This document shows positions 7,668 to 33,247 of a stretch of 41,371 bases of DNA, in pieces. This DNA comes from Minisyncoccota bacterium (GTDB lineage Bacteria; Patescibacteriota; Minisyncoccia; JAHIHE01; JAGLIN01), in the NCBI GenBank assembly GCA_023143145.1, contig JAGLID010000067.1, positions 1-41,371 on the forward strand. The letters are read 5' to 3'. The notes under the pieces are model-generated. The model was not told the DNA's origin and did no database searches. It was given only the letters and a program-made list of their open reading frames with translations. Numbering within the stretch: the first letter of the stretch is position 1; the number at the start of each line of letters is the position of its first letter. The position numbers and the translations under genes were made by a program.

Positions 7668-7688
7668 GAAATTTAAATGTTTGTCTAT

Positions 7689-9341
7689 TTATAATTTTAA
7701 GTGTTTTGTCATATATTCATCCTCAAGTTTATATCCTAATTTTCGATAATAGCCACGTACGCCAACACCGCTGATGACGGCGATTTTTTTTAGGCTAAAT
7801 TCTTTATGGGTTATTTTTTCTGCTTCTTGAATTAATCTTTTACCGAGGCCAGTGTGTTGGGTATGTTTTTCGCCGATTGACTTGATAGGGGCTAAAGTTC
7901 CATAAGTGTGAATTTCACGGATAATACTGGCATTTTGGAGGGCGGGGATGATTGAATTTTTGCATTCTGAAGAGTGAACTCCAGTTCTGTTAATCCTTAA
8001 CCTTAATAAAGAACAGAGATGCTGTCTTTTTTTATCTTCAAAACTCAGAAAGATTTCTTTGCCGTTCGATGCTTCGTAGTCTTGTCGAAATAGTTGTAAA
8101 TTATTATTACTTGAGTTTTCAATCCCCCAATCTTTCTTATCAGGGAGGAAGATTCGATTTCTAATCTCACGACATCTGATACATTTGCATTTCCAATTTT
8201 CTTCTTTAGATTTTTTTTCAAGAGTTTGTCTGAGATTGGAAATTTTGTTTCCAGCTACAATGCTAGTTGAAGGGATGTCGCGAATTAGGCGAGTGATGCG
8301 AACATAATAGGGAATATCTTTTTTGATTTCACAAAGTAGCTGAATCAGTTTTTTATCAGAATATGGTTTATATTTTCCACTTTTCCACCACTTGAAAATT
8401 TTTGCATCTTTGACAACAACACACGGATAAATTTTAAGCATATCAGGTTGATAGTTCAAATTGGAAAAAAGTTCCTGAAACATTTTCAAATCTCGTTTAT
8501 AATTTGACCCTGGAAGATTTGGCATCATATGATAGTTGATTTTGAAACCCGCTTCTTTCAGTAATCTTGTTGCCGTGATAACCTCTTTACTGCTATGTCC
8601 TCGAGCATTCAGTTTGAATACATCATCGTAAATTGTTTGTACTCCAATCTCAACTCTTGTGGCTCCCAGTTTTCTCATGCGTAATATTTCTTTCTCATCA
8701 ATATAATCAGGACGAGTTTCCAGTGTGAGCCCAACAATTCTGTGATCTGAGGTTTCATTTTCTTTTTGTAGACTTTCAAGTGATAAATTTTTTGATTTAT
8801 TTTTTTTGTTAAACTCATTACAGACCTTGAAACATTCCTTGATAAACCAGTTTTGATAGTTTTTCGGTAAATAGGAAAAAGTTCCTCCCATCACAATCAA
8901 TTCAATTTTATCTGTTTTATGGCCGGTCGCCATCAGAGATTTAATTCTCGCTTCCACTTGTTTGCGGGGATGAAAATCAGTAAGCACAGCGCGCATTACA
9001 GCTGGTTCGTTGGAAAGATAACTTTTAGGCATATTTTTTTCACTTGGACAAAATTTACATTTCCCAGGACATGGATATGGTTTGGTTAAAACTGCAATTA
9101 CAGCAACGCCTGATGAGGTACGAATATTTTTGGTCATTAAAACATTTTCAATTTCTTTTAGCGAATCATCTTTTGTCATTTTTCGATAAAATTGAAGTAG
9201 CTCGATATTCGTTGGACATGGCATTTTGAATTCTTTTGAGGCCCTTCTTTTGAGCTTGGAAAGATATTCCGAAGAAAGCTGTCTTTTTCTGACAGAAACT
9301 TTTTTAATTAGTTCGTTGATAATATATTGGTTGATGTTCAT
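7689..9341 (-). CDS. elp3: Elp3-type radical SAM / GNAT acetyltransferase (tRNA U34 cm5 modification enzyme homologue)
   Basis: 550 aa with radical-SAM CxxxCxxC (CPGKCKFCP) and TIM-barrel motifs IVMGGTFS and ATRVEIGVQTIYDDV. The C-terminal GNAT acetyl-CoA loop is HTGLGKRLIQEAE. Confidence 0.85.
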   Translation of the reverse strand: MNINQYIINELIKKVSVRKRQLSSEYLSKLKRRASKEFKMPCPTNIELLQFYRKMTKDDSLKEIENVLMTKNIRTSSGVAVIAVLTKPYPCPGKCKFCPSEKNMPKSYLSNEPAVMRAVLTDFHPRKQVEARIKSLMATGHKTDKIELIVMGGTFSYLPKNYQNWFIKECFKVCNEFNKKNKSKNLSLESLQKENETSDHRIVGLTLETRPDYIDEKEILRMRKLGATRVEIGVQTIYDDVFKLNARGHSSKEVITATRLLKEAGFKINYHMMPNLPGSNYKRDLKMFQELFSNLNYQPDMLKIYPCVVVKDAKIFKWWKSGKYKPYSDKKLIQLLCEIKKDIPYYVRITRLIRDIPSTSIVAGNKISNLRQTLEKKSKEENWKCKCIRCREIRNRIFLPDKKDWGIENSSNNNLQLFRQDYEASNGKEIFLSFEDKKRQHLCSLLRLRINRTGVHSSECKNSIIPALQNASIIREIHTYGTLAPIKSIGEKHTQHTGLGKRLIQEAEKITHKEFSLKKIAVISGVGVRGYYRKLGYKLEDEYMTKHLKL

Positions 9342-9488: not shown

Positions 9489-10511
9489 ATGGAACCAGAT
9501 CTTGATTGGAAAAATTTGTCGTTTGAGTATATCAAAACTAATTGCAATATTAGATATCAATTTGCAAATGGAGCTTGGGGGGAAATGCAGAAATCAGTTT
9601 CAGATCATATTGATATGCATATGGCGGCAACTTGCTTGCATTATGGACAAGAGTGTTTTGAAGGGCTGAAAGCTTTTAGGGGTAAAGATGAGAAAGTCAG
9701 AATATTTCGTTGGCAGAAAAATGCCAAGAGAATTAATGATTCTGCCAAAGAAATATTTATGCCAGAAATACCTGAGGAGATTTTTCAAGAAGCGGTTTTG
9801 AATGCTGTGAAGTTAAACCATGAATTTGTTCCGCCTTATGAGTCGGGTGCCTCATTATATATTCGTCCTCTGTTAATCGGAACGGGTCCGAGAGTGGGAC
9901 TGAATCCAGCTGATGAATATATATTTATTGTCTTTGTAAATCCTGTTGGACCATATTTCAAAAATGGTTTCAAACCGATTAGTCTTTTGATTGACAGAGG
10001 GCATGATCGTGCCGCACCACTTGGAGTGGGTCATGTGAAAGTTGGTGGAAACTATGCGGCGAGTTTACAATCTATGGAAAAAGCACATAAGGGTGGCTGT
10101 GACTCAGTTTTGTTTTTGGATCCAGGGGAGAAAAAATATATTGATGAATGCGGTCCAGCAAACTTTTTTGCGATTAAAGGAAAGATTTATGTTACTCCGA
10201 AATCAAAATCTATCTTGCCTTCAATCACAAATAAAAGCTTGATGACACTTGCCGAAGATATGGGTTTGAAAGTGGAAAGAAGAAAAATTGAGCTCGGGGA
10301 GTTAGATGAATTCGATGAAGTTGGTGCTTGTGGTACGGCGGCTGTGATTGGGCCTGTTGGAAAAATTGTCGATGAGAAAACGGGCAAAACATATCGATAT
10401 TGCCAAGATGGAAATCCAGGGCCAATTTCGACACAATTGTACAATCGATTTCGTGCAATTCAACTTGGGGACGAGGAAGATAATTTTGAGTGGGTGACTG
10501 TGGTCGATTGA
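9489..10511 (+). CDS. ilvE: branched-chain amino acid aminotransferase (fold type IV PLP)
   Basis: ECFEGLKAFR, LYIRPLLIGTG, the catalytic Lys region VKVGGNYAAS, and GACGTAAVIGPV. 340 aa. Confidence 0.85.
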   Translation: MEPDLDWKNLSFEYIKTNCNIRYQFANGAWGEMQKSVSDHIDMHMAATCLHYGQECFEGLKAFRGKDEKVRIFRWQKNAKRINDSAKEIFMPEIPEEIFQEAVLNAVKLNHEFVPPYESGASLYIRPLLIGTGPRVGLNPADEYIFIVFVNPVGPYFKNGFKPISLLIDRGHDRAAPLGVGHVKVGGNYAASLQSMEKAHKGGCDSVLFLDPGEKKYIDECGPANFFAIKGKIYVTPKSKSILPSITNKSLMTLAEDMGLKVERRKIELGELDEFDEVGACGTAAVIGPVGKIVDEKTGKTYRYCQDGNPGPISTQLYNRFRAIQLGDEEDNFEWVTVVD

Positions 10512-10551
10512 TTTATGTTTGATTTGCAAGCTTTATCGTTCATAAAAAAAT

Positions 10552-10579
10552 AACTGTAAAAATTATTTTTTCTACAGTT
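10552..10579. terminator. hairpin between convergent ilvE and a small membrane-protein gene
   Basis: AACTGTA-(14 nt)-TACAGTT. The loop is A/T-rich and includes a T-run. It overlaps the stop of the - strand ORF. Confidence 0.35.
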
Positions 10580-10769
10580 AGTTGTGTTTTATGATTTCCT
10601 TTATTCCAAATAATATAGGTAGACAATAGAATATTGTTATAACAAGGAATATTATAATATTTATTCTAGCAGATCTGTTTAACAGTGCTTTTTCTTTCTT
10701 AAAAGAAATCCCAGATATAATGATTCCAATTATTAAATAACATAGCGAACCTAGTATTAAAACATGCAT
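10578..10769 (-). CDS. small membrane protein (2 TM), unknown function
   Basis: 63-aa ORF with two clear hydrophobic helices, sitting in an otherwise unexplained spacer. No family recognised. Confidence 0.4.
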   Translation of the reverse strand: MHVLILGSLCYLIIGIIISGISFKKEKALLNRSARINIIIFLVITIFYCLPILFGIKEIIKHN

Positions 10770-10917
10770 ATAGTTCCTCCAATATTATATTAGATAAAAA
10801 ATAAGTATTAGTCAATTTGGTATATTTTCCAATCTTTCTGATGGATGTGCAACTGTTGTTAATTGTGATAAAATTGTATTAGGAGTGTTTGAGGAGAATA
10901 ATCATTAAGTTAAATAT

Positions 10918-11295
10918 ATGAAAAAGATAATTTTGACAAAAAATGTTCACAAGCCAGTTGGTCAATATTCACAAGCAGTTGAAGCTGGTGGTTTAATTTT
11001 TCTATCGGGTCAAATTCCACTGAAACTAGGAGGAGCCATAGTTGACGGAGATATTAAAGATCAAACAAAGCAGGTACTTGAAAATGTCGGGGAAATTTTG
11101 AAATCAGTTGGTTTAGGTTTTGAGAATGTCGTAAAAACCACAATCTACCTTTCTGATTTAATTGACTATCAAGATATGAATGAAGTTTATGGAAAATATT
11201 TTCAAAAAGATTTTCCTGCTCGGTCAACAATTCAAGTATTTGGACTTCCTAAAGACGTTGGTATTGAAATTGATGTCATTGCAGCGAGGGAATAA
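10918..11295 (+). CDS. ridA: RidA/YjgF-family reactive intermediate deaminase
   Basis: PVGQYSQAVEAGGLIFLSGQIP ... YLSDLIDYQDMNEVY ... PARSTIQVFGLPKDVGIEID. 125 aa. Confidence 0.85.
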   Translation: MKKIILTKNVHKPVGQYSQAVEAGGLIFLSGQIPLKLGGAIVDGDIKDQTKQVLENVGEILKSVGLGFENVVKTTIYLSDLIDYQDMNEVYGKYFQKDFPARSTIQVFGLPKDVGIEIDVIAARE

Positions 11296-16759: not shown

Positions 16760-17902
16760 ATGCTAAACAAGAATTATATATTTGCAGTATCTTCAATGGT
16801 TGGTACTTCGGTTGGTGTTGGAATTTTTTCGTTGCCATATGTTGCTTCAAAATCGGGATTCTTACCATTTGTAATTCTTATTGTTATATTGGGAGTTATC
16901 ACAACGATTTTAGGTCTAATGTATGGAGAAATAACTTTGAGGACAACAAACAAAGGAAGGCTTGTTGGTTATTGCGAAAAATATCTTGGTAAAAAAGGAA
17001 AGATAATTGCAACGATTGTTGTTCTTTTTACTTTATATTCAAGCCTGCTTGTTTATATTATCATCGGGGGCATTTTTGGTAGTGCTGTATTTTCTAGTTC
17101 TTTAGGAGGAAACGAATTAACATATAGTCTGATAATGTTTGCCGTGATTTCAGTGGGTATCTATATAAGTCTAAAAGTTGTTAGCGTGATTGAATTTTTG
17201 ATGGTTATTTTTCTTTTTATCACAATTCTGGGAATTGTCCTCAAGGGAATACCAATCGTTGATGTTGGCAATCTTGTCACTCATAATTCTTCTCAGTTCT
17301 TCTTTCCGTTTGGAGCAATTCTTTTTTCTTTGGGAGCTTTGTCTGCAATTCCAGTACTTGAGCACATAATGAAGAAAAAACAAAAGAAAATTAAGGATGT
17401 TATAATCATTGGTAATATTATTCCAATTATTATTTACATTCTATTTGTAGTCGTGGTTCTCGGTATAACGGGAGCTGAGACCTCAGTAGAGGCTCTTTAT
17501 GGTCTTAATGTTAGTATTGGGAATGGAATCGTGACTCTTGGTTTGATTTTTGGAATATTTGCTATCTCAACTTCATTTCTAATGTTAGGTATTAATTTAA
17601 AAGAAATGTTTTGGTATGATTATCATCTTAGTGAAAAAAAAGCCTGGGCTCTAACTTGTTTCGTGCCATTGATTGTTTTTGTTTTAGGTCTTCGTGATTT
17701 CATAACAGTTGTAAATATCGCTGGTGGTATCGCTGGTGGATTTATCGGAATCCTAATCATTATTATATTCTATAGGGCAAAAAAGATGGGAGATATTAAA
17801 CCAGCATATAGCATAAAAGTTCCAGTTGTGATTTCACTTGTTATGGTTGTGATATATTCTATCGGAATTGCTTATCAGTTGATTGAAAATTTTAAGATTT
17901 AA
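16760..17902 (+). CDS. amino acid permease (aromatic/hydroxy amino acid or Aa_trans-like)
   Basis: 380 aa with about 10-11 TM helices. The N-terminal signature is VGTSVGVGIFSLPYVASKSGFL. Confidence 0.7.
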   Translation: MLNKNYIFAVSSMVGTSVGVGIFSLPYVASKSGFLPFVILIVILGVITTILGLMYGEITLRTTNKGRLVGYCEKYLGKKGKIIATIVVLFTLYSSLLVYIIIGGIFGSAVFSSSLGGNELTYSLIMFAVISVGIYISLKVVSVIEFLMVIFLFITILGIVLKGIPIVDVGNLVTHNSSQFFFPFGAILFSLGALSAIPVLEHIMKKKQKKIKDVIIIGNIIPIIIYILFVVVVLGITGAETSVEALYGLNVSIGNGIVTLGLIFGIFAISTSFLMLGINLKEMFWYDYHLSEKKAWALTCFVPLIVFVLGLRDFITVVNIAGGIAGGFIGILIIIIFYRAKKMGDIKPAYSIKVPVVISLVMVVIYSIGIAYQLIENFKI

Positions 17903-17909
17903 TAAATAT

Positions 17910-18296
17910 ATGCATAATAAAAATATCAAAAATGTAATTGGATTATGGTTAGCAGTTTTTTTATGGTGTGCCTTTATTTATTTCCTATCCTCAATCCCAA
18001 GTCTGAAATCTGATTTTTCAAGTGAAATTGATTTTGTTTTGCGAAAAATTGCCCATATGAGCGAATATGGGATTTTGACTTTTTTATTCTTCCGAGCCTA
18101 TTCAGGTAGTAAAAATAATCTTTCTAAAAGAAAATCTATTTCTTTGGCGATAATGTTTGCTTTCACTTATGCCCTCACTGATGAATATCATCAGTTGTTT
18201 GTCTCTGGAAGAGAAGGAAGCTTGAGAGATGTGTTTGTTGATAGTCTAGGAATATTTTTCGTGGCATTTTTAATTTACAAAAAAGCGAAAAAATGA
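17910..18296 (+). CDS. VanZ-family membrane protein
   Basis: LRKIAHMSEYGILTFLFFRA ... TDEYHQLFVSGREGSLRDVFVDSLG. The ORF-track TTG start at 17883 overlaps the permease gene. The in-frame ATG at 17910 is preferred. Confidence 0.75.
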   Translation: MHNKNIKNVIGLWLAVFLWCAFIYFLSSIPSLKSDFSSEIDFVLRKIAHMSEYGILTFLFFRAYSGSKNNLSKRKSISLAIMFAFTYALTDEYHQLFVSGREGSLRDVFVDSLGIFFVAFLIYKKAKK

Positions 18297-18331: not shown

Positions 18332-19402
18332 ATGATAAACTATATGGAAAACCCTTTGATTGTTATAGAAGTAATCAGAGTATTTGCAATTTTGGCAATT
18401 ACTTTTTCAGTAGCGATGATTTTAACGCCAGTACTTACTCATTTTCTTTATAAATATAAAATTGGAAAACAGATTCGAGCGGATGGTGATACACCGATTT
18501 TCACCGCACTTCATAAGAAAAAATCTGGCACGCCAACAATGGGAGGTCTTCTGATTTGGATTGTTGTTCCTCTTCTTGCAATTTTATTTTGGCTTTTGTC
18601 AATAATTTTCGAAGGATCTCCGTTTGAGTATATAAATTTTCTTGATCGATCTCACACTTATCTGCCTTTGGGAATTTTAGTTCTTGCTGGCATGGTGGGA
18701 GCGGTAGATGATATTATGGGAGTATTTCGTATTGGTCCAAAAGGAGGAGGACTTGGCATCAAAGAAAGAATTTTACTTTATACTTTCGTAGCCGTAATCG
18801 GAGCTTATTGGTTTTATTTTAAGCTCGGCTGGGACATGATTCACATTCCTGGTGTTGGTGATTTTCCAATTGGCTTGTGGTATGTTCCTCTCTTTATTTT
18901 CATTATTGTAGTAACTTCATTTTCTCTTAATGAAACTGATGGTCTTGATGGTCTTGCTGGTGGAACAGTTTTACCTGCTTTTGGAGTTTTTGGAACAATA
19001 GCTTTTGCACAAGGAAATACAGAACTTGCCATGTTTTGTGCTGCTATAATTGGAGCTTTACTTGCATTTCTGTGGTTTAATGTTCATCCAGCAAGGTTTT
19101 ATATGGGGGACACTGGCTCAATGGCTTTGGGTGTGACATTGGGGGTTGTGGCAATGCTGACAAATTCGTTTTTGATTTTGCCAATTGTTTGTTTTATTCT
19201 TGTTATTGAATCAATGTCGGTTATCATTCAATTGACATCAAAAAAATTTAGAGGAAAAAAAGTTTTCCGGAGTGCACCAATCCATCATCATTTCGAAGCT
19301 ATTGGCTGGCCGGAATGTAAAATTACAATGAGGTTTTGGATTATTGCATGGGTAATGTCTACAATTGGATTGGTAATTGGATTACTTGGCATGGGTAACT
19401 AA
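18332..19402 (+). CDS. mraY: phospho-N-acetylmuramoyl-pentapeptide transferase
   Basis: KSGTPTMGG, VDDIMG, NETDGLDGLAGG, MGDTGSMALG and APIHHHFE motifs in a polytopic membrane protein. Confidence 0.9.
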   Translation: MINYMENPLIVIEVIRVFAILAITFSVAMILTPVLTHFLYKYKIGKQIRADGDTPIFTALHKKKSGTPTMGGLLIWIVVPLLAILFWLLSIIFEGSPFEYINFLDRSHTYLPLGILVLAGMVGAVDDIMGVFRIGPKGGGLGIKERILLYTFVAVIGAYWFYFKLGWDMIHIPGVGDFPIGLWYVPLFIFIIVVTSFSLNETDGLDGLAGGTVLPAFGVFGTIAFAQGNTELAMFCAAIIGALLAFLWFNVHPARFYMGDTGSMALGVTLGVVAMLTNSFLILPIVCFILVIESMSVIIQLTSKKFRGKKVFRSAPIHHHFEAIGWPECKITMRFWIIAWVMSTIGLVIGLLGMGN

Positions 19403-19458: not shown

Positions 19459-21036
19459 ATGCTAGATATAATTATTAAAAATGGAACTGTAATTGACGGT
19501 ACGGGAAAAAAAGGGATTGTTGCTGACGTTGGCATTGAGAAAGGAAAAATAGCAGAGATTGGAAAAATAGGAGTTAGCAATTTAGTGAAAACAATAGATG
19601 CAACAGGAAAAACTGTTTGTCCTGGTTTTATTGATATACTCGATCATTCTGATAATTTTTGGACAATTTTTACCATTCCAAGACTAGATAGTAAAGTTTT
19701 TGATGGAGTTACTACAATAATTGGTGGGAATTGTGGCACTTCGCTCGCTCCAGTGTCAAATCAAGGTTCAATAGAAGCGATGAGAAAATGGGTCGATATT
19801 GATAATGTTAATATAAACTGGCAAGGTACAAAAGATTTTTTCTTGGAGTTGAATAAGAAAAAAATTGGTTTAAATTTTGGAACATTAATTGGACATGAAA
19901 CTTTAAGAAGGGGTTTACTTGGAGATGAGGTTAGAAAAATTACAGAAGAAGAAGTCGAAATAATAGGGAGAATGCTTTCTGATGGTTTGCAAGCAGGGGC
20001 TTTTGGGTTGTCGACTGGATTGGTTTTTTCTCATGCCAAAATGACGACACTTAATGAACTAAAATTTCTAGCTGATATTCTAAAATCTTCTAACTCTTAT
20101 TATGCAAGTCATATTCGAGGAGAAGCGGAGGAGTTACTGCCGAGTATAAACGAAACAATACATATCGGAAGAGAGATGAAAGTGTCAATTGAAATTTCTC
20201 ATTTAAAGGCAGTCGGAAAAAAATATTGGCCAGATATGCAAAGGGCAATTGATATGATTGATGTTGCGAATGAAGATGGTGTTAATATTAATTTTGACAT
20301 CTATCCATACGACACAACCGGATCTGTTCTTTATATACTTTTACCAGATTGGGTTTCGAATGGAGGAAGGAAAATAATGATAGCGAGACTAAAAGATTTG
20401 AGTTTGAGAGAAAAAATTATTAACGAGATGAAAAGTATGAATTATGATTATAATAATATTGTGATATCAATTTGTCCAAGATTAAAAGAAGCAGTAGGAA
20501 GAAAAATTACTGATATTGCAGTAAGTCAGGAAGTCAGTATTGAAGAAGCAATAATTGAATTATTAATAAGTGCTAATGGTCATGTTATTGTTTTTGATGA
20601 GGGAATTTTAAGTGAAGAAAATATAAAAATTTCACTAAGAAGTCCATATTCAATTATAGCTTCTGGAGATGCTGCATATAATATCGAGTATGTTCGAATG
20701 GGTGAGCTTGTTCATCCGAGATGTTTTGGAACATTTTCTAGAGTTTTGGGAAAATACGTAAGAGAAGAAAAAATTCTTAGTCTGGAAGAAGCAATCAAGA
20801 AAATGACATCTTTGCCTGCTCAGAAAATTGGAATCAAAGACCGAGGAATTTTGCAAAGTGGTAATTGTGCTGACGTTGTAATTTTTGATCAAAAAACAAT
20901 AATTGATAAAGCTACCTATAGCAATCCTTATCAATATTCAAAAGGCATAGAGCATGTTATTATAAATGGTAAAATTGTCATAGATAATTTTGAGCACACT
21001 GGAGAATTAGCAGGAAAAGTTTTGAAGAAACGGTAA
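19459..21036 (+). CDS. D-aminoacylase-family amidohydrolase (N-acyl-D-amino-acid deacylase-like)
   Basis: N-terminal beta-sandwich IIIKNGTVIDGTG...ADVGIEKGKIAEIG, then PGFIDILDHSD. GGNCGTSLAP places a Cys at the metal-ligand position of D-aminoacylases. The C-terminus has ADVVIFD...ATYSNP...GIEHVIINGK. No signal peptide. Confidence 0.75.
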   Translation: MLDIIIKNGTVIDGTGKKGIVADVGIEKGKIAEIGKIGVSNLVKTIDATGKTVCPGFIDILDHSDNFWTIFTIPRLDSKVFDGVTTIIGGNCGTSLAPVSNQGSIEAMRKWVDIDNVNINWQGTKDFFLELNKKKIGLNFGTLIGHETLRRGLLGDEVRKITEEEVEIIGRMLSDGLQAGAFGLSTGLVFSHAKMTTLNELKFLADILKSSNSYYASHIRGEAEELLPSINETIHIGREMKVSIEISHLKAVGKKYWPDMQRAIDMIDVANEDGVNINFDIYPYDTTGSVLYILLPDWVSNGGRKIMIARLKDLSLREKIINEMKSMNYDYNNIVISICPRLKEAVGRKITDIAVSQEVSIEEAIIELLISANGHVIVFDEGILSEENIKISLRSPYSIIASGDAAYNIEYVRMGELVHPRCFGTFSRVLGKYVREEKILSLEEAIKKMTSLPAQKIGIKDRGILQSGNCADVVIFDQKTIIDKATYSNPYQYSKGIEHVIINGKIVIDNFEHTGELAGKVLKKR

Positions 21037-21081: not shown

Positions 21082-22038
21082 ATGCTAAGAATAAAGAATA
21101 TTTTAGACAAATTAAAAAAACAAGATCAGCAAGATTATGGTGTTGCTGTTTTTGATATTGATTTAGAAGTAACTAAGAAAGGAGTATTTATTTTTGGAGA
21201 AGTTTTGATTGAAAATCAAAAAGATAAAGTTTTAGAATTGTTGAAAAAAGAAAACATAGAAATTGCAAATGAGAAAATAAAAGTTTTGAGTGATGTAAGT
21301 AAGAGATATGAGATTGGTTGGGTTGTGGTGAAAGCTAAAATTGCAGATTTAAAATCGAGATTTGTTTCAGAAAAAAATATAAATGAAAACATTTTAAAAA
21401 GAATAAGATGCTCGCAAGCCTTTAAGGGAGAAATTTTGCGAGTTTTGTATAAAAATGAGGATCAATTATTGGTTCAGCAAAACGATTTGACGTTGGGTTG
21501 GATAAACAAAAATGAGGTTATTGTAAAGAAAGAAAGTTTTTATAAAGAATGGAAAAAGGGAAATTATGCAATCAAGGACAAGTTGATAAAAAGTAAGGTT
21601 TCAATTGATGTGACTATAAAAGAAGCAGAAAAATATCTTGGCTCAAAATATCTCCTTGGCGGAAAAACCAAAAACGGAATTGATTGTTCAGCGTTAATTC
21701 AGATTGTCTACAAAAATTCTTTAGGCATTGTTCTGCCAAAGCATTCATGGGATCAAAAAAAGATTGGAAAAAAAGTAGATTTAAAAGATATAGAAACAGG
21801 GGATTTGATTTTCTTGATAAAAAAAAACAACAAGCATAAACATGTTGGAATTGTTGAAGTGTTATTAGAGGGAATTGCGAAAAGGAATTACAGCTCAAAA
21901 GGTACTATGGAACTATCAGATAGGTCTAATATAAATTTAATTCACGCCTCGCTGGATCAGAAAAAAGTAATCAGACAGGATTTGAAAAAAGTTTTTGAGG
22001 ATTATGACTTTGTAGAAGCGAAGAGAGTTATTCTTTGA
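21082..22038 (+). CDS. NlpC/P60 (C40) cysteine peptidase with N-terminal SH3b-like region; no signal peptide
   Basis: Catalytic Cys in GGKTKNGIDCSALIQIVY, His in HKHVGIV, then NLIHAS. The N-terminal half has SH3b-like strands (GWVVVKAKIADLKS; LLVQQNDLTLGWINKNEV). Confidence 0.8.
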   Translation: MLRIKNILDKLKKQDQQDYGVAVFDIDLEVTKKGVFIFGEVLIENQKDKVLELLKKENIEIANEKIKVLSDVSKRYEIGWVVVKAKIADLKSRFVSEKNINENILKRIRCSQAFKGEILRVLYKNEDQLLVQQNDLTLGWINKNEVIVKKESFYKEWKKGNYAIKDKLIKSKVSIDVTIKEAEKYLGSKYLLGGKTKNGIDCSALIQIVYKNSLGIVLPKHSWDQKKIGKKVDLKDIETGDLIFLIKKNNKHKHVGIVEVLLEGIAKRNYSSKGTMELSDRSNINLIHASLDQKKVIRQDLKKVFEDYDFVEAKRVIL

Positions 22039-22050
22039 AATAAAAAAATA

Positions 22051-22085
22051 GAGAATCTAATAGTTTTTGTTTACTATTAGCTCTC
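22051..22085. terminator. hairpin terminator between convergent genes
   Basis: GAGA-at-CTAATAGT-(8 nt)-ACTATTAG-c-TCTC. The T-run follows it on the - strand, so it mainly serves the 22077..22553 gene. Confidence 0.5.
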
Positions 22086-22553
22086 TATGGTAGAGCTAAG
22101 TTCTATTTGTACCTCACATTCATATCTTCTTATTATGACATTTCCTCCAGCAGATTTAAATGCTAAGACTGAATCGGAAAATCCCATTAATCTCTTCATT
22201 GTATTTGCTTTTCCTAACTGTTTTTCGAGGAATTCTTCTGTTTGCTTTTCCCTTTCTAATATTATTTCGATGAATTCATCTTCAAGTAAGACGTCTTGTT
22301 CAATGAATCTCGATATTCCTTCATTAATTTCTAACTGTATTCCATTGATTTCGCATGTCGGATTGATATAATCAATAGTATCAATTCTTAGTTTCCATTT
22401 TTTATTGCGTAATGTTAAACTAATCTTTGCTTGTTTTTGTGGAAAATATACAGTTCCTTCGTTGCATAAGATTTCTCTAAAAGCTCTTTCTGCATTCGTT
22501 CTTCCATTTCCTTGACTAGTCTTAAAGTATAATGTCAATTTTTCCTCTGCCAT
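22077..22553 (-). CDS. hypothetical protein (orphan, opposite strand inside the dcw region)
   Basis: The ORF track gives 22077..22583. The internal Met (MAEEKLTLYF...) has GGAGG 7 nt upstream and is the likelier start. No motif recognised. Confidence 0.55.
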   Translation of the reverse strand: MAEEKLTLYFKTSQGNGRTNAERAFREILCNEGTVYFPQKQAKISLTLRNKKWKLRIDTIDYINPTCEINGIQLEINEGISRFIEQDVLLEDEFIEIILEREKQTEEFLEKQLGKANTMKRLMGFSDSVLAFKSAGGNVIIRRYECEVQIELSSTIES

Positions 22554-22595
22554 TTTATGACCTCCTATAACAATTAATAACAATAATCTAAATAA

Positions 22596-24140
22596 ATGTC
22601 AATAGAAAATCAATTGAAACAATATAAAAATAAAAACATTCACATCGTTGGAATTGGCGGGGCGGAGGGGAGTGCGATTGCGGAGTTTTTGGTGGCCAAT
22701 GGAATTTCTTCGATTACTGGGCATGATTTTTCTTCGAAGGGGGATTTCAAAAAAGCCTTTAATAATACTCATTTGAGTTTGAAACCAGAAGAAAGAGAGG
22801 AGGCTCTGGATCATCTTTTGAATTTGCCAATCAAAATAAATTTCAGAGATCATTATCTGGAAGATGTCAAAGAAGCAGATATAGTTTTTGTTTCGCAGGT
22901 CTGGTTTAAGTATCCTCAAAATATGCCGATTTTAGAAAATATTAAAGATGATGGCGTTCCGTTTAAGACAATTACAAATTTATATTTTGAACTTATGCCG
23001 GGCAAGATTATTTCTGTAACAGGAACGAATGGTAAAACAACAACTTCAAGGTTAATAAACAATATTTTTGAGGATTGGAAAGAAACTTGTCTCGAATATA
23101 CTTCACTAGGAGATGAAAATGACGTTTCTTGTATTGCCTTTCAGGTGGATAAGAAGGATGATATTTTAAATGTTTATTTTGCTGGAAACGATAGACAAAA
23201 TCTGCAAGTTTTGGATCAACTTGAGAAAATGAAAAAAGAAGATATTTTGATTCTAGAGACTAGCAGCACTCAGCTTCTTTTGAATTCTTGTATAAGCCCA
23301 TCTATTGGAGTAATCACGAATATTTCTCCGAACCATCTTGATGATCACGGGAGTATTGAAAATTACATAGAAGCTAAGAAAAATTTAATTCGATATCAAA
23401 AGAAAGGAGACTGGGCAGTTTTGAATTATGACAATGAGCAGACTAGAAAAATCGCGAAGGAATTTTCAGATAATGCATTTTTGTTTAGCGCTAAAGAGGA
23501 ATTGACACAAGGTTGTTTTGTGAAGGGTGGCGAGGTAGTGATTAGAATAAACGAGGAAGAATTTGTCTTGTTTTTAGTAGACGATATAAAAATTCCAGGA
23601 AATCATAATTTGGAAAATGTTTTAGCGGCAGCTAGTTGTGCATATTTATATGGAATTAATCTAGAAATAATTAAGAAGATGATTTCAAAATATACAGGAA
23701 CAAAGCACCGGCTGAAACTTCTTTATAATATTGATGGAATAAAATATTATGATGATACGCAAGCTACAAATCCAGAATCGACAATTGCTGGAATTAACTC
23801 TTTTGATAATGATATAATTTTGCTTTCTGGTGGAGACGACAAGAGAATGAATTATGAAGAACTTGGACAGAGTATTAACAGTCGAGTTAAGTTTCTGATA
23901 TTATTTCCAGGAGGTGCGTCTGAGAAAATTGAAAGTTTGGTTAATAAGAAGAAGATTGATTTTGTGAAAGTGAAAAATTTTCAAGAGGCGATTGATGAAT
24001 TAAAAAAATATTATCAAAAAACTGATCTTAAAAAAGACGGTACGGTTTTGATTTCTCCCGGAGCGGCACATTTCTATTCAAGATTTGTTGAAAATTCTGG
24101 AAAGGACTTGAAGGAATGGATTAGATCTATTAATATTTAA
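22596..24140 (+). CDS. murD: UDP-N-acetylmuramoylalanine--D-glutamate ligase
   Basis: IHIVGIGGAEGSAIAEFL, P-loop VTGTNGKTTT, ILETSSTQL, GNHNLENVLAA, GTKHRLK and DDTQATNPEST. An extra segment of about 35 aa follows the P-loop helix. Confidence 0.85.
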   Translation: MSIENQLKQYKNKNIHIVGIGGAEGSAIAEFLVANGISSITGHDFSSKGDFKKAFNNTHLSLKPEEREEALDHLLNLPIKINFRDHYLEDVKEADIVFVSQVWFKYPQNMPILENIKDDGVPFKTITNLYFELMPGKIISVTGTNGKTTTSRLINNIFEDWKETCLEYTSLGDENDVSCIAFQVDKKDDILNVYFAGNDRQNLQVLDQLEKMKKEDILILETSSTQLLLNSCISPSIGVITNISPNHLDDHGSIENYIEAKKNLIRYQKKGDWAVLNYDNEQTRKIAKEFSDNAFLFSAKEELTQGCFVKGGEVVIRINEEEFVLFLVDDIKIPGNHNLENVLAAASCAYLYGINLEIIKKMISKYTGTKHRLKLLYNIDGIKYYDDTQATNPESTIAGINSFDNDIILLSGGDDKRMNYEELGQSINSRVKFLILFPGGASEKIESLVNKKKIDFVKVKNFQEAIDELKKYYQKTDLKKDGTVLISPGAAHFYSRFVENSGKDLKEWIRSINI

Positions 24141-24164: not shown

Positions 24165-24317
24165 CTATTTTTCCTCCTCAATTAATTCCAGTTCAATCGG
24201 TTCTGTTGAGATTATTTCATGTTCAGCACCACAGGCAGGGCACGCAATGATATCTCCAATTTTAATTGTTTTTTCATCAACTGGAATCTCGCAACCGCAC
24301 TCTTGGCAATTTGTCAT
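24165..24317 (-). CDS. LysW-like zinc-ribbon protein (amino-group carrier protein fold), 50 aa; not in the ORF track
   Basis: My own translation of the - strand gives MTNCQECGCEIPVDEKTIKIGDIIACPACGAEHEIISTEPIELELIEEEK. CxxC...CxxCGAExE(I/V)(I/V)...P(I/L)xLE matches the LysW pattern as I remember it from Thermus and Sulfolobus. A near-consensus promoter lies upstream. There is no obvious SD. Confidence 0.55.
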   Translation of the reverse strand: MTNCQECGCEIPVDEKTIKIGDIIACPACGAEHEIISTEPIELELIEEEK

Positions 24318-24343
24318 ATATTTGATTTAATGATTATGTACTA

Positions 24344-24371
24344 ATTATAGTAAGATAAATTAAAAAGTCAA
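24344..24371 (-). promoter_or_regulatory. sigma70-like promoter for the LysW-like ORF
   Basis: On the - strand: TTGACT (24371..24366), a 16-nt spacer, then TATAAT (24349..24344). This lies about 26 nt upstream of the ATG at 24317. Confidence 0.45.
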
Positions 24372-24396
24372 AAAAAGAAAGGCATCAGTTGCCTTT
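24370..24396 (-). terminator. intrinsic terminator of the 107-aa membrane-protein gene
   Basis: On the - strand: AAAGGCA-actga-TGCCTTT followed by CTTTTTTT, 5 nt after the stop at 24401. Confidence 0.55.
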
Positions 24397-24400
24397 AATA

Positions 24401-24724
24401 TCAATATTTAAGCTTGATTGAAATTGTTTTCATTTTTATTTCTGGATGTTTCTTTAGGAAAACAATTCCTGTGACAAGCATAATTGAAACAAATATCATT
24501 CCTGCATACGACAATATCTCATTGTGAAATATCATCATATTGCTTATAAATAATATTGCTAACAATTCTGATACAATTATTGATATAAATTTCCAATTTT
24601 GTTTTGCTTCCTCGTGATTTGCTGTAATTCTCTTAATAATTATATACCCAAGAGCAATAATTATAAACATTAGAATTAAAAAATGAGAGAAAATGAGCAC
24701 TCTTTGAATTATTTCTGAATACAT
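24401..24724 (-). CDS. small 3-TM membrane protein, unknown function
   Basis: 107 aa with three hydrophobic helices. GGAG lies 11 nt upstream of the ATG, and a terminator follows immediately downstream. Confidence 0.5.
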   Translation of the reverse strand: MYSEIIQRVLIFSHFLILMFIIIALGYIIIKRITANHEEAKQNWKFISIIVSELLAILFISNMMIFHNEILSYAGMIFVSIMLVTGIVFLKKHPEIKMKTISIKLKY

Positions 24725-24767
24725 TAGTATTTAATCTCCGTCAAAAGTTTAGTCGATATATAATTTA

Positions 24768-25832
24768 ATGTCAATCTTTCAAGAAAAAATCAATAAACAA
24801 GAAATAGGCATTTGGAGGTATGTTGGTTTTTATAATGATTTTGTGAAATCAGAAAATAGATTATATCTTGAAGATGGGAATTTGGAAAAATTAGAAAATG
24901 AGGATTTGAATAAAATAAGCAAGATAAAGCATTTATATTTTCAGCGAGAGGATGAAAATGAAACGGGATCGCTAAAAGGCAGGAGCCTTGCCTATCAGGT
25001 TTCGCTTGCGAAGCAAAATGGGATAAAAGAACTTGTAATTTCAACTTCTGGAAATGCGGGAATTGCGGCGGCTGCATATTGTCAGGAAGCGGAAATAAAA
25101 TTATATATTTTTATTTCTCCTGAAACAGAAAAAGCCAAAATTGCGAAAATGCAGAAATATAATCCAATAATAATAGAATCAAAAAAAGCGATTCGGTTGG
25201 CTAATTATCTTTCTGCTAGGTATAAAATTGAAAATTTAAGACCTTCTTTAAATGACTCTTCTATTGAGGGTTTTAAGTCGATCGCTTTTGAAATATTTGA
25301 GAAATTAGGAGAGATTGATGCTCTGTTCACTTTTGTGACTAGCGGAAGTTCGTTTGTGGGAATTGGTAGGGCATATCAACATTTATTGGATTGCGATAAG
25401 ATAAAAAAGATGCCAAAATTATTTGCAGTGCAAAGCGGAGAGATTTCATCTATTGCGGGAGATTTCGAAAAAATAACCAAGCAAAAAGATTCAGTAGCCG
25501 GAAGATTGGGAGTAAAAAATACGAGAAGAAAAAAAGAGATTTTGGAATTTATAAAGTTAAGCGGAGGAAGTGGAATTTATATAAATAATCAAGAGCTTCA
25601 AGAAGCGACACAGATATTGGAAGGAAATAAAATAATTACATCGCAAGAAGGTTGTGCAAGTTTTGCAGCAAGTCTGAGAGAAGGAAAAAAATATAATTTA
25701 AATAAAGTGGTTTGTGTACTTTCTGGAAAATCAAGAGATAGGAATAATCAGGTTACAAAAGATAAAATCAAAATAGCAGAAAGTTTTAATGATGTGGATA
25801 ATATTATTATTGGGAAATTTAATTATTGTTAG
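24768..25832 (+). CDS. threonine-synthase-like fold-type II PLP-dependent enzyme
   Basis: N-terminal GIWRY (ThrC-like). PLP-lysine motif ENETGSLKGRS (compare NPTGSFKDRG), then ISTSGNAGIAAAAYC and FVTSGSSFVGIG. 354 aa. Confidence 0.7.
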   Translation: MSIFQEKINKQEIGIWRYVGFYNDFVKSENRLYLEDGNLEKLENEDLNKISKIKHLYFQREDENETGSLKGRSLAYQVSLAKQNGIKELVISTSGNAGIAAAAYCQEAEIKLYIFISPETEKAKIAKMQKYNPIIIESKKAIRLANYLSARYKIENLRPSLNDSSIEGFKSIAFEIFEKLGEIDALFTFVTSGSSFVGIGRAYQHLLDCDKIKKMPKLFAVQSGEISSIAGDFEKITKQKDSVAGRLGVKNTRRKKEILEFIKLSGGSGIYINNQELQEATQILEGNKIITSQEGCASFAASLREGKKYNLNKVVCVLSGKSRDRNNQVTKDKIKIAESFNDVDNIIIGKFNYC

Positions 25833-25859
25833 AGTGACAGATTCTAAATATGAAAATTT

Positions 25860-27230
25860 ATGACAAACGAAATTACAAAAATTAAAAGATTACTGAATAA
25901 GAAAGAAATTGGTCCTGTTTTTTTTGTGACTCCAAATCCGAATCGTGGGATTGGACTTGAAAAAGAGATTGAGAATTATCATATAATTTGCTCACAGAAA
26001 ACAGATCTGGTGGAATCTTTGAAAGAAGAAAAAATAGCTATTTTATGTATAGAGGATGAAAAAATAAAAAACTCAGGTAAGCTCTTGGAGAACAAAGAAG
26101 TTCTAAATTATATAAAAAAAGAAGCAAAAGGAAGACAAATAAATATTATAACTTTTAAACCAAGTCCCAAAATTTCAAAAATATGTACTGATAATAATTT
26201 TCGATATCTAGGAAATGATTGGAAGCTAAATAGAAAATTTGAAAATAAGATTGAGTTTGCGAATATAACCAATCATTTAAAAATTCCGAATGCGAAAAGT
26301 AAGGTTGTTAAACTTCAAAAAAATAATGAAAAGATTTTAAATATGTTAGAAAAAAATCAGCTTATTTTTCAACTTCCAAGAGGTTTTTCGGGTAATTCAA
26401 CTTTTTTAATAGAAAATAAAAAAGATTTAAAAAATATAATCGTGAAATATGCAGGCAGAGAATTTAAAGTTTCAAAATTTCTGAAAGGCAATACATATAC
26501 AACCAATGCTTGTGTGACAAAATTTGATATAGCTGTAAGTCAGCCGATATTTCAAATCACGGGACTAACCGACTATAACAGAAATAAACTTGGAACGTCT
26601 GGGAATGATTATGTTTGTGGCGAAAAGTTAAGCGCCTTTGAAAAGAAAAAGATTTTTGATTATACAAAAAAAATCGGTGAGTATATGTCACAATCGGGGT
26701 ATCAAGGAATTTTTGGCCTTGATTTTATAGTTAATAAAAATGCTGTTGATTTGATTGAAATTAACCCGCGATTTATTGGTTCAATTCCAGTGTTTACAAA
26801 ACTTCAAATTCAAAAAGGAGAAATTCCTTTTTTACTTTTGCATTTGTTCGAATTTTTGAAAATTAATTACGATTTTGAAATATTAAAAAATTATTTTTCT
26901 TATGATTTTTGGCGAAAGCAAGATAATTTTAATTTTTCACAATTGATTTTAAGAAATACGAAAGAGAATGATATAAAAATTAAAAAAACAATGATCTCTG
27001 GTATTTATGAAACTAAAGAAGATAAATTAGTTCTCAGGAATAAAAATTATTTTTCCAAAGAGTTGGAAGAAGATAAATTATTGATTCAATGTTCAAAAAA
27101 GAATAGTGTTATAAGTCCCGATGCTGAATGTGCTAATTTGCAGTTTGGATGTAGTATAATGAAAGGAAACAAATTAGATAGAAATTTCGCTAAGACGATT
27201 GATTTAGTTGTTGGTAAATTAGGGTTATAA
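25860..27230 (+). CDS. ATP-grasp family ligase, substrate unknown
   Basis: 456 aa. C-terminal ATP-grasp core YQGIFGLDFIVNKNAVDLIEINPRFIGS, with central FQLPRGFSGNSTFLIENKKDL (nucleotide-binding strand/loop). The size and INPR motif do not look like Ddl or RimK/LysX. Confidence 0.65.
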   Translation: MTNEITKIKRLLNKKEIGPVFFVTPNPNRGIGLEKEIENYHIICSQKTDLVESLKEEKIAILCIEDEKIKNSGKLLENKEVLNYIKKEAKGRQINIITFKPSPKISKICTDNNFRYLGNDWKLNRKFENKIEFANITNHLKIPNAKSKVVKLQKNNEKILNMLEKNQLIFQLPRGFSGNSTFLIENKKDLKNIIVKYAGREFKVSKFLKGNTYTTNACVTKFDIAVSQPIFQITGLTDYNRNKLGTSGNDYVCGEKLSAFEKKKIFDYTKKIGEYMSQSGYQGIFGLDFIVNKNAVDLIEINPRFIGSIPVFTKLQIQKGEIPFLLLHLFEFLKINYDFEILKNYFSYDFWRKQDNFNFSQLILRNTKENDIKIKKTMISGIYETKEDKLVLRNKNYFSKELEEDKLLIQCSKKNSVISPDAECANLQFGCSIMKGNKLDRNFAKTIDLVVGKLGL

Positions 27231-27249: not shown

Positions 27250-28338
27250 ATGAAATCACACGAGATTGATAAAACTTTAATGTTAACGGTTTGCTTACTA
27301 TCTTTTTTGGGCTTAATCGCAATATCTAGTGCCAGTGTAGTTATGAGTTATCATAAGTTTGGTAATAACTATTATTATCTATTTCATCAATTTGTGTATG
27401 GTTTTATACCGGGTTTTATAGCTTTGTTAATATTGCAAAAAATTGATTATAGAATTTTCAAGAAAAATATGTTGTTATTCCTGATTGTAACAATTATTCT
27501 TCTTTTTGTCGTTTTTGTTCCAGGATTAGGATTAGGATTGAAAGGAGCTAATAGGTGGATAAGTATCGCTGGGATTAGCTTTCAGCCCTCGGAATTTATA
27601 AAGCTTACTTTTATTTTGTATATTGCAGTTTGGTTTGAAAAAAATAAAAAAGACTTCTCTAATTTATTGATTCCATTCATCGTCTTGATCGTTATTATTG
27701 GCATTCCTTTAATAAAACAACCTGATATAGGAACTCTTAGTATTATCATTTTGACTGCTGTAATTATGTATTTTTCATATGGGGCAAAAATCAAACATAT
27801 TCTCTTGCTTGGTGTTGGTGGTTTGGCGGGATTGTTATTTTTAATAAAAATTGCTCCATATCGTATGGACAGGTTTATGGTTTTTTTACATCCGGAGATT
27901 GATCCTTTGGGAATTGGATATCAGATTAATCAAGCTTTATTAGCTTTTGGCTCCGGGGGATTTTTTGGTCTTGGATTTGGGCAAAGTAGACAGAAATTTA
28001 ATTATCTACCAGAACCGATTGGAGATTCAATCTTTGCAATTATTGGAGAAGAATTTGGCCTTTTTGGAATAAGTGTCATTGTTATCTTGTTTTTAATTTT
28101 TGCCATGCGAGGATACAAAATTGCCTGCAATGCCCCCGATGATTTTGGTAAATTAGTTGCCGTTGGAATTACATCGTTGATTACTTTTCAGGCCATTATG
28201 AATATGGCGGCAATTACTTCACTACTTCCCCTGACTGGAATTCCTCTTCCTTTTATAAGTTATGGCGGATCTAATTTGATAGTTTCACTGGCAGCTGTTG
28301 GCATATTACTGAATATTTCAAGACATTTAAAAGCATAA
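27250..28338 (+). CDS. ftsW: SEDS-family peptidoglycan glycosyltransferase FtsW/RodA
   Basis: FQPSEFIKL, GYQINQALLAFGSGGFFGLGFGQS, LPEPIGDSIFAIIGEEFG and PLPFISYGGSN. Confidence 0.9.
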   Translation: MKSHEIDKTLMLTVCLLSFLGLIAISSASVVMSYHKFGNNYYYLFHQFVYGFIPGFIALLILQKIDYRIFKKNMLLFLIVTIILLFVVFVPGLGLGLKGANRWISIAGISFQPSEFIKLTFILYIAVWFEKNKKDFSNLLIPFIVLIVIIGIPLIKQPDIGTLSIIILTAVIMYFSYGAKIKHILLLGVGGLAGLLFLIKIAPYRMDRFMVFLHPEIDPLGIGYQINQALLAFGSGGFFGLGFGQSRQKFNYLPEPIGDSIFAIIGEEFGLFGISVIVILFLIFAMRGYKIACNAPDDFGKLVAVGITSLITFQAIMNMAAITSLLPLTGIPLPFISYGGSNLIVSLAAVGILLNISRHLKA

Positions 28339-32542: not shown

Positions 32543-33247
32543 ATGACAGAAGAATTTACAACGGCCTTGAAAGAGGCAAATAAAGCATATAGTGATGGGA
32601 ATCATAAAGAAGCATTAGAACTTGCAACAGATGCTGAGAGAATCGCGCTTGAGATGACGATTCAGGCTACACGAAAAAAGTCTTGGTCTGCAAGACAAGT
32701 AGGGTATAAAGAAAATGATGAGTCTATAAGAGTCAAAATGTACTGCATTGCAAGAACAGGTGCTCAGTTCATTCTTGATTATTCTAGGGATTTTGAAATG
32801 AGAAACTCGGCCATCAAGCTTTTGATGCTGTTACCAGGATCAGATATTGAGTCTCTTTGTAAAATAGGGGTTCGAGAAGTCAAATTTGCTGAATTAATTA
32901 ATGAAGGAGAAAAAGAAAGTTGGATTGGCGAATTGAGAAATTCTCTCGGAATTGAAGTTCGAAAAACTGACCCACGACAAGCGATGGATATATTTTTATC
33001 TACACACGAAACAGTAAAAAGCAAAACTGTTATTGCAGGACATTTAATGCAAAATGCAGGAACTTGTTTATTAATGCAAATGAATGAAACAAAATACATC
33101 AATATGAAGCATTATTATGCTCATAAAGCAATTCAGCTTTTGCAGAAAGCTATTGATGAGTATCCTGAAGATCAAAAAGGTCACAGAGAATCGGTAAAGA
33201 ATAAAATTAATAATACTAAGGAGGAAATAAAAAACAACTTCCAATAA
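32543..33247 (+). CDS. hypothetical helical protein (TPR-like N-terminus)
   Basis: 234-aa ORF with GAGGTGA 9 nt upstream. It has its own promoter and a hairpin/T-run downstream. No motif recognised. Confidence 0.55.
   Translation: MTEEFTTALKEANKAYSDGNHKEALELATDAERIALEMTIQATRKKSWSARQVGYKENDESIRVKMYCIARTGAQFILDYSRDFEMRNSAIKLLMLLPGSDIESLCKIGVREVKFAELINEGEKESWIGELRNSLGIEVRKTDPRQAMDIFLSTHETVKSKTVIAGHLMQNAGTCLLMQMNETKYINMKHYYAHKAIQLLQKAIDEYPEDQKGHRESVKNKINNTKEEIKNNFQ

Follow-up and report, generated by a model that had tools for sequence, protein, structure and literature searches.

The 41,371-nucleotide contig JAGLID010000067.1 of a Minisyncoccota bacterium (GenBank assembly GCA_023143145.1), analysed here over its whole length and called the window, very probably carries a conserved module of five genes among its peptidoglycan genes. 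These genes encode an NlpC/P60 cysteine peptidase, a MurD-like ligase, a LysW-like zinc-ribbon carrier, a pyridoxal 5'-phosphate (PLP) enzyme with the threonine synthase (ThrC) fold, and an ATP-grasp ligase. We tentatively suggest, at somewhat under an even chance, that the module supplies D-glutamate (D-Glu) and installs it at position 2 of the stem peptide. A previous, sequence-only reading of this DNA had described a carrier-like gene, a small membrane protein gene, a ThrC-like gene and an ATP-grasp gene as an insertion between an ordinary murD and ftsW. All four open reading frames (ORFs) are present where that reading placed them; the idea of an insertion had to be abandoned because the 'murD' gene (22596-24140, + strand) and the NlpC/P60 gene upstream of it (21082-22038, +) are themselves module genes, and because 27 of 39 carrier-bearing loci lack ftsW. 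The combination appears to be undescribed, as had been supposed: nothing on it was found in the literature searched.

The window is of low GC content (~31%), and the close homologs of its proteins are named as Parcubacteria, Paceibacterota or Patescibacteria, in keeping with a source of the Paceibacteria type within the Patescibacteria. Its genes follow the order permease, VanZ, mraY, D-aminoacylase-like amidohydrolase, NlpC/P60, a 168-aa ORF (−), 'murD', the LysW-like gene (−), a 107-aa ORF (−), the PLP enzyme gene (Pfam PALP; +), the ATP-grasp gene (+), ftsW, murG, murC and murB, with MurG, MurC and MurB identified by Pfam downstream of ftsW.

Conservation of the module was assessed in a locus survey with one genome per species, which returned 80 loci (given below as L numbers) onto which the window proteins were mapped. 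The distribution of ATP-grasp ligase homologs matches that of PLP enzyme homologs. Among Paceibacteria, the order MurD-like ligase, LysW (−), PALP, ATP-grasp, ftsW, murG, murC is kept down to 35% ATP-grasp identity, and this synteny, together with PALP::ATP-grasp fusions, bears out the earlier view of the LysW-like, ThrC-like and ATP-grasp trio as a functional set tied to peptidoglycan genes. The 39 loci with a carrier of the type described below (LysW-EEK) include a MurD-like ligase next to the carrier gene in 36, PALP in 37, NlpC/P60 in 31 and ftsW in 12; outside Paceibacteria, the module occurs without ftsW or murG. The module is spread over three or more bacterial phyla, with representatives in Paceibacteria, Peribacteria, Dormibacterota, Firestonebacteria (detected by searching from the LysW side) and Chloroflexota (Anaerolineae, Caldilineae and Ardenticatenales), and some copies lie on contigs of 2.9 Mb and 2.4 Mb amid unrelated genes. 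All-against-all clustering of neighbours in loci outside the candidate phyla radiation (CPR) gave no further conserved partner, only lineage-specific synteny in Dormibacterota (MoxR, VWA and a 292-aa protein). Eight loci (L063, L069, L073, L075, L078, L080, L081 and L084) are labelled as Verrucomicrobiia, Acidiferrales or a Micrarchaeaceae archaeon and have the gene order of Dormibacterota metagenome-assembled genomes: MoxR-like AAA protein, VWA protein, 292-aa unknown protein, module, DnaJ and pyr genes. Their taxon labels look unreliable, and they were counted as one lineage because of this shared synteny.

Gene fusions chain the module enzymes together pairwise, with different pairs joined in different lineages. 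Six loci of the Anaerolineae type (L034-L036, L044, L046 and L060) encode an NlpC/P60::Mur ligase fusion of ~890 aa; PALP is fused to ATP-grasp in L039 and in protein P0388, and partially in P0054; and ATP-grasp is fused to NlpC/P60 in five representatives (P0379, P0421, P0438, P0439 and P0452). The last of these fusions also occurs within a full module context, in L093, where the order is Mur ligase, LysW (−), PALP, ATP-grasp::NlpC/P60. In L061, a D-glutamate-cyclase-like domain (PF14336, E 1e-51) is fused to NlpC/P60. One Anaerolineales assembly has the module split, with LysW and the Mur ligase on L088 and PALP and ATP-grasp on L025, so that the closest genomic partner of the carrier is the Mur-type ligase rather than the ATP-grasp ligase.

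The carrier gene (24165-24317, −) encodes a 50-aa protein whose reading as a LysW-type zinc ribbon stands: its globular domain has the four Cys of PF21344 (Zn_ribbon_LysW; 41.6 bits, cutoff 27), and it matches and aligns with the solved LysW proteins 5k2m_E (E 6e-7) and 3wwl_A (E 3e-6). It falls below the curated LysW equivalogs (34.0 vs 53.2 for TIGR01206 lysW; 35.4 vs 75 for NF041070 LysW/ArgW). Canonical LysW ends in EDWGE, the terminal Glu being the attachment point. The window carrier ends in ...ELIEEEK, its last residue being Lys and not Glu, and a C-terminus of the form [ED][ED]EK is found in 39 of 39 locus copies and in 120 of 120 relatives among the matches listed; the cross-phylum profile search gave 465 carrier relatives at E<=0.01. 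Loading of a C-terminal Glu by a LysX-like ligase, the precedent on which the sequence-only reading drew, is ruled out by this invariant Lys, which we propose as a putative attachment point. No LysX/ArgX (RimK-type), LysZ, LysY, LysJ or LysK was found among the Pfam-annotated neighbours in the window, L001-L004, L085-L088 and L093. Curated scores, tail and context thus rule out a true LysW. Hundreds of LysW-fold proteins ending in ...EEK, P0241-P0360 among them, are publicly named 'lysine biosynthesis protein LysW' or 'alpha-aminoadipate carrier protein'. These names are probably misannotations, and they could lead to lysine pathways being wrongly called in Dormibacterota, Chloroflexota and Patescibacteria.

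The 514-aa ligase had been taken for an ordinary MurD, its nearest family by sequence. Against the murD model TIGR01087 it scores 252 bits (cutoff 212), in two stretches with weak N-domain coverage, and module-type relatives reach 191-246 bits, only from about profile position 75; a canonical MurD control from the division and cell wall (dcw) cluster of another Patescibacteria genome reaches 398 bits over positions 5-440. The window ligase is also closer to module-type ligases of Chloroflexota (260-320 bits) than to canonical Patescibacteria MurDs (173-191 bits). We aligned 13 module-type sequences to the Escherichia coli landmark in a numbering that reproduces all residues named in PMC8788868. 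The residues K115, E157, H183, K198, D317 and K348 are conserved in all 13, and N138 and T321 are likewise kept. Position 415, in MurD a Ser that we take to contact the gamma-carboxylate of D-Glu, is never Ser. D182, another Glu-site residue (PMC8788868), is replaced by N in 11 of 13. A414 is often P, as in MurD2 (see below), and GNI[GR] has become GN[DE]R. The UDP-loop region is altered as well (GLGxxG to G-x-[SG]-x-EG; SPG to Q[AV]W), and the N-domain carries an extra segment of ~30 aa. With its catalytic residues kept and its substrate sites changed, the protein is therefore predicted to be a catalytically active member of the MurD lineage of Mur ligases with remodelled substrate sites; partial model coverage and the changes in the UDP loop and the Glu site speak against an ordinary MurD.

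The remodelled ligase admits a rival to D-Glu installation that we regard as unlikely overall: the module could build a product other than the UDP-N-acetylmuramic acid (UDP-MurNAc) dipeptide on its carrier, with the Mur-type ligase and the ATP-grasp ligase extending the Lys or tail, the PLP enzyme making or tailoring one of the added amino acids and NlpC/P60 cleaving off the finished product. The product would be an amino acid or a short gamma-glutamyl-type peptide, canonical murD would lie elsewhere in Paceibacteria and the dcw location would be incidental. Several observations suit such a scheme, namely the position of the module away from dcw genes in most phyla (27 of 39 loci), the tight tie between carrier and Mur-type ligase on L088, and the replaced UDP motifs (GLGxxG loop, SPG) with the ~30-aa N-domain addition. 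It also has precedents: in the LysW/LysK and CysO/CysM/Mec systems, and likewise in MetO/MetM/Mec, an amino acid is made on the C-terminus of a carrier and released by a protease, and pseudomurein Mur-type ligases assemble peptides on a non-MurNAc scaffold. Against it, the Paceibacteria ligase occupies precisely the place of murD, and paralogs are seldom retained in the small genomes of this group; the score of the ligase exceeds the murD equivalog cutoff (252 vs 212); a Gly-rich loop of the Rossmann type is retained, as is the beta2 Asp; and no candidate product is evident.

D-Glu supply is, for its part, suggested by the genomic slot that the module fills. Three related Patescibacteria loci, L037, L038 and L041, lack the module and have the order mraY-murI-murD-ftsW-murG, with a normal ddl nearby; their murI scores 190-194 bits on TIGR00067 (above 146.65), their murD 398 bits over its full length, and they carry only a distant ATP-grasp paralog. 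The window module lies between mraY (18332-19402, +; Pfam Glycos_transf_4 and MraY_sig1) and ftsW (27250-28338, +; TIGR02614 362 bits, cutoff 337.5), and it therefore fills exactly the murI-murD slot of these relatives. Searches of the window and of every module locus gave no MurI or Ddl homolog. The sequence-only reading had remarked on missing murE, murF and ddl genes; these, together with murI and alr, were absent both from the window and from 10 kb beyond each of its ends (~62 kb of contig). A class IV aminotransferase gene (9489-10511) was considered as a D-amino-acid transaminase (Dat) that might supply D-Glu and was ruled out, the enzyme being IlvE.

The PLP enzyme (24768-25832, +; 354 aa; PALP E 3e-42 in Pfam) contains each of the motifs attributed to it (GIWRY, ETGSLKGRS and STSGNAGIAAAAY), with K70 as the PLP lysine and with invariant S92, S94, N96 and R158; an invariant Ser is kept before the GN of its asparagine loop. 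Its description as ThrC-like without being an ordinary threonine synthase proved accurate, in that it falls far below the cutoff of every ThrC equivalog (best 128.6 vs 358; TIGR00260 59.7 vs 167.1). In Foldseek searches with an AlphaFold2 model (pLDDT 90.6) the top match was short bacterial ThrC at a template modelling (TM) score of 0.77, followed by Ser/Asp racemases and threonine deaminases (TdcB) at 0.66-0.70. Aligned to 2zsj, three positions are replaced family-wide (T to A97, R to S165 and GNAGN to TSGSS); these positions align with the elements of ThrC that bind the phosphate of O-phosphohomoserine in Thermus thermophilus structures (the Thr after GN, the Arg in NSxNxxR and the GNAGN loop). 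There is no hom or thrB context around the gene, and curated scores and site residues rule out a true threonine synthase. Our working guess is that the enzyme acts on a tethered amino acid, by epimerisation.

The ATP-grasp ligase (25860-27230, +; 456 aa; ATP-grasp_3 E 6e-8 in Pfam) contains the motif GIFGLDFIV...LIEINPRF and is separated from ftsW by 19 nt, both as reported earlier. It belongs to an uncharacterised family of 841 clusters at 50% identity (E<=1e-30). Its best NCBIfam match is PRK06524 (136 bits vs a cutoff of 684) and its sole sequence match in the PDB is BesA (E 0.027). An AlphaFold2 model (pLDDT 92.5) has a three-domain architecture like that of biotin carboxylase (BC) and PurD, and its top 50 Foldseek matches are BC, PurD and PurK at TM scores of ~0.6 and 9-14% identity, which is a generic likeness. 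Pfam and NCBIfam scans gave no match to RimK/LysX models, and Ddl appeared neither among the NCBIfam family matches nor in the Foldseek top 50; a true Ddl control (L041) scored 415 bits, and phmmer with the L041 Ddl found nothing in the window. No specific likeness to Asl-type ligases was seen, in a search that held no Asl-specific model. Model, PDB and fold searches agree in ruling out an ordinary Ddl, LysX or RimK, as had been anticipated, and we propose the protein as the loading enzyme of the module. Other Patescibacteria have distant paralogs (26-30% identity) unaccompanied by PALP or LysW (L050, 8583-12442; L041, 9992-11482); they stand in other contexts, have little to say about the module and were set aside. 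The L050 paralog has as flanking neighbours a RimK-related protein like alpha-L-glutamate ligases and an ATP-grasp protein like cyanophycin synthetase, making a cluster of three ATP-grasp genes.

The earlier reading had the PLP enzyme make a non-standard amino acid that the ATP-grasp ligase then joins to the stem peptide or cross-bridge, as an addition to MurE or Ddl or as their substitute, perhaps with a protein carrier involved. We consider this quite unlikely. The PALP::ATP-grasp fusions do suit an order of making and then ligating, the ThrC fold suits beta- or gamma-replacement building a diamino or unusual amino acid, the gene upstream of mraY for an amino-acid permease is conserved, and murE, murF and ddl are missing from the ~62 kb of contig covered. 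The scheme leaves without a role the invariant Lys of ...EEK, the NlpC/P60 peptidase and the MurD-like ligase, each of them fused or linked to PALP and ATP-grasp; the ATP-grasp ligase has no specific likeness to Ddl, Asl-type ligases or LysX; and the D-Glu-related accessory domains indicate position 2. The broader claim that the trio is an amino-acid module for peptidoglycan thus survives in part: it is conserved and linked to peptidoglycan genes, while the evidence points to D-Glu at position 2 over a non-standard residue at position 3 or in the cross-bridge.

The NlpC/P60 peptidase (318 aa; Pfam NLPC_P60 E 1.8e-17) has an N-terminal region of ~185 aa of unknown fold, and we propose it as the releasing enzyme of the module. 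Between it and mraY lies the gene of a 525-aa amidohydrolase of the D-aminoacylase family (19459-21036, +), for which the PDB gives as best matches 1m7j (a D-aminoacylase; 246 bits) and 3gip (an N-acyl-D-glutamate deacylase; 236 bits). Neither protein has a signal peptide, and both are accordingly predicted to be cytoplasmic. The amidohydrolase is present in the window and in L001, L007, L008, L011 and L014, is absent from non-CPR loci and thus belongs to the Paceibacteria version only; its role may be that of a module accessory peculiar to this lineage or of an enzyme for D-Glu salvage. A very unlikely extension of the second possibility is that the two hydrolases degrade imported host muropeptides (L-Ala-gamma-D-Glu-X) and pass D-Glu to the ligase, the LysW, PALP and ATP-grasp genes being unrelated. 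Such salvage fits two cytoplasmic hydrolases, the activity of the solved relatives of the amidohydrolase, which deacylate N-acyl-D-amino acids including N-acyl-D-Glu, and the view that Paceibacteria rely on hosts for building blocks. Weighing against it, the amidohydrolase is missing from non-CPR modules, and NlpC/P60 belongs with the trio because it is fused to ATP-grasp or to the ligase in several lineages and occurs with the carrier in free-living phyla.

Installation of D-Glu at position 2, the reading that we tentatively favour, is suggested by the D-Glu-type ligase, the NlpC/P60 peptidase, the D-glutamate-cyclase-like fusion, the D-aminoacylase neighbour and the murI-murD slot. We infer four steps. 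The ATP-grasp ligase would first join the gamma-carboxyl of L-Glu to the epsilon-amine of the C-terminal Lys of the carrier—a 'reverse' LysW logic in which the carrier offers the amine, so that the alpha-amine of the substrate is left free. The PLP enzyme would then epimerise the tethered Glu through that free alpha-amine, for which isopenicillin N epimerase, a PLP epimerase whose target amino acid is tethered through its side chain, is a precedent. The MurD-like ligase would couple UDP-MurNAc-L-Ala to D-Glu, either tethered or after release; its pocket for a free gamma-carboxylate is changed. Finally, NlpC/P60, whose family typically cleaves gamma-D-Glu-Lys or gamma-D-Glu-diaminopimelate bonds, would free the product and regenerate the carrier. 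This scheme would account for the invariant Lys, the need of the PLP enzyme for a free alpha-amine, the lost Ser of the ligase and the fusion pattern, and its logic has further precedents in MurD2/MurL and MetO/MetM/Mec (see below).

Several points weigh against this scheme. MurI racemises Glu without a carrier, and the need for a carrier in racemisation thus lacks a rationale. The nearest fold of the PLP enzyme is that of threonine synthase, with its gamma-elimination and replacement chemistry, and not that of racemases. Given its remodelled UDP-loop region, the ligase could act on the carrier tail and not bind UDP-MurNAc-L-Ala. The slot argument is drawn from three closely related loci, and the scheme presumes a genome-wide absence of murI, dat and canonical murD, where the negative search for MurI covered the window and the module loci; free-living Chloroflexota and Dormibacterota, in which the module lies off the dcw cluster, may well have both murI and a canonical murD, and the module would then do something else there. 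A Paceibacteria subclade (L003, L018-L020 and L023) has PALP and ATP-grasp before ftsW with no ligase or carrier nearby. In L003, an IS1595-family transposase gene (7344-8159) lies just upstream of PALP and ATP-grasp, and an insertion may have broken up the module in this subclade.

A more far-reaching version, which we mention as a long shot, treats LysW-EEK as a carrier class that offers a Lys amine and on which part of the stem peptide is built, with NlpC/P60 acting as a transpeptidase. The isopeptide bond made by the ATP-grasp ligase would store energy; epimerisation and coupling to UDP-MurNAc-L-Ala would follow, and NlpC/P60 would transfer the gamma-D-glutamyl moiety to the diamino acid of position 3. 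If that were so, one module would replace MurI, MurD and MurE.

Among known systems, the LysW/ArgW systems (of Thermus, Sulfolobus and Thermococcus, and AmCP in Streptomyces) resemble the module in having a ~50-aa PF21344 zinc ribbon with an acidic tail, encoded alongside an ATP-dependent ligase, a PLP enzyme and a releasing hydrolase, and in a logic of loading, tailoring and release. They differ in their EDWGE tail, where the gamma-carboxyl of Glu carries the substrate, as against ...EEK with its terminal Lys; in using a RimK-type LysX instead of a BC-like ATP-grasp ligase and a MurD-like ligase; in their hydrolase, which is the M20 protein LysK and not NlpC/P60, and in LysZ, LysY and LysJ, which the module lacks; and in being tied to lysine and arginine synthesis, whereas the module is tied to peptidoglycan genes. 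The CysO/CysM/Mec (Mycobacterium) and MetO/MetM/Mec (Streptomyces) systems likewise pair a CysM- or ThrC-type PLP enzyme acting at a carrier C-terminus with a dedicated peptidase; MetM, for example, is a ThrC homolog whose partners are the carrier MetO and a peptidase for release (bioRxiv 10.1101/2024.10.14.618325). Their carriers are ubiquitin-like with a GG thiocarboxylate, activated by adenylation and used in sulfur delivery, whereas the module has a zinc ribbon ending in Lys and activation by ATP-grasp and Mur-type ligases. ThrC itself shares with the PLP enzyme the PLP lysine and the overall fold, being its best structural match, and differs in the sub-cutoff scores, the replaced phosphate-site residues and the hom/thrB context.

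In the MurD2/MurL system of Xanthomonas oryzae, a MurD-like ligase and an adjacent novel gene replace murI where D-Glu genes are missing; the system occurs in Proteobacteria and rare actinobacteria lacking murI and dat, spends ATP for D-Glu, and has E197 and R358 as the decisive residues of MurD2 (PMC8788868). Like MurD2, the module ligase has altered Glu-site residues and stands beside novel genes, and some module ligases share the changes A414 to P and L416 to F. At the positions of E197 and R358 (E. coli D182 and K348), module-type ligases have N (or D) and K; the module neighbours are a carrier, a PLP enzyme, an ATP-grasp ligase and a peptidase, MurL itself not having been searched for; and the taxa are different. 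Canonical MurD is the closest sequence family and shares the ATP-binding and catalytic residues and, in Paceibacteria, the position in the dcw cluster; it differs from the module ligase, which matches the model partially, has a changed UDP loop, D182 and S415 and an extra N-domain segment, and has no murI nearby. Defining features of LysW, ThrC, Ddl, LysX and MurD2/MurL are each absent, which places the module outside all of these groups, and we file it as a variant of the LysW-type principle of loading, tailoring and release joined to a ligase of the MurD lineage.

Few bacterial pathways are as well mapped as the synthesis of peptidoglycan precursors, and to our knowledge MurD2/MurL is the sole alternative route to stem-peptide D-Glu. 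If the proposed mechanism is right, a carrier-dependent route would be a second, reaching from ultra-small Patescibacteria to Chloroflexota and Dormibacterota; the LysW carrier principle would extend to a carrier ending in Lys; and four sizeable families of uncharacterised proteins would gain functions. Hundreds of 'lysine biosynthesis protein LysW' entries would need correction, as they can mislead metabolic reconstructions of uncultured phyla. Whatever its chemistry, the module comprises five small soluble proteins and is a clean experimental target.

Two ORFs interspersed with the module genes were rejected as members, the 168-aa ORF (22077-22583, −) between NlpC/P60 and 'murD' and the 107-aa ORF (24401-24724, −): neither is conserved, with no tblastn match in ~90 related loci. 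The 107-aa ORF has the three hydrophobic segments of the three-transmembrane protein described earlier and no Pfam or NCBIfam match; it is lineage-specific and outside the conserved module. A terminator-like hairpin follows it (24396-24378, −). Upstream of the LysW-like gene, the promoter TTGACT-16-TATAAT noted previously is there as a sequence (24344-24371, −; 11 of 12 matches), with such matches occurring at chance frequency in this AT-rich stretch (19 observed vs 18 +/- 4 in shuffles); a promoter at this site is plausible. No tRNA or Rfam elements were found in the window.

Directly upstream of mraY, at the usual position of murE and murF, lie genes for an amino-acid transporter of the Trp/Tyr-permease family and a VanZ-like protein (16760-18296, +), an arrangement kept in L001, L007, L008, L011 and L014. 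A gene after murB (32543-33247, +), at the expected ddl/ftsQ position, encodes a 234-aa protein that matches nothing in Pfam or NCBIfam; it is conserved in L018 (35% identity), has counterparts of about the same size in L001 and L003 and could be a divergent FtsQ-like protein. Elsewhere in the window of this small-genome bacterium is an Elp3-like radical SAM protein (7689-9341, −; Radical_SAM, Radical_SAM_C, a weak ELP3_N and a GNAT-like C-terminus). The branched-chain aminotransferase gene (IlvE, 420 bits) is followed by that of a RidA-family (Ribonuc_L-PSP) protein, the pair spanning 9489-11295 (+). RidA proteins quench enamines that fold-type II PLP enzymes release, and the module enzyme is of that fold type; a tie between the two is speculative. 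About 8 kb past the right end of the window, on the same contig (L091, 18278-19186), a shorter PALP-family gene of 302 aa lies beside thioredoxin and ferredoxin genes.

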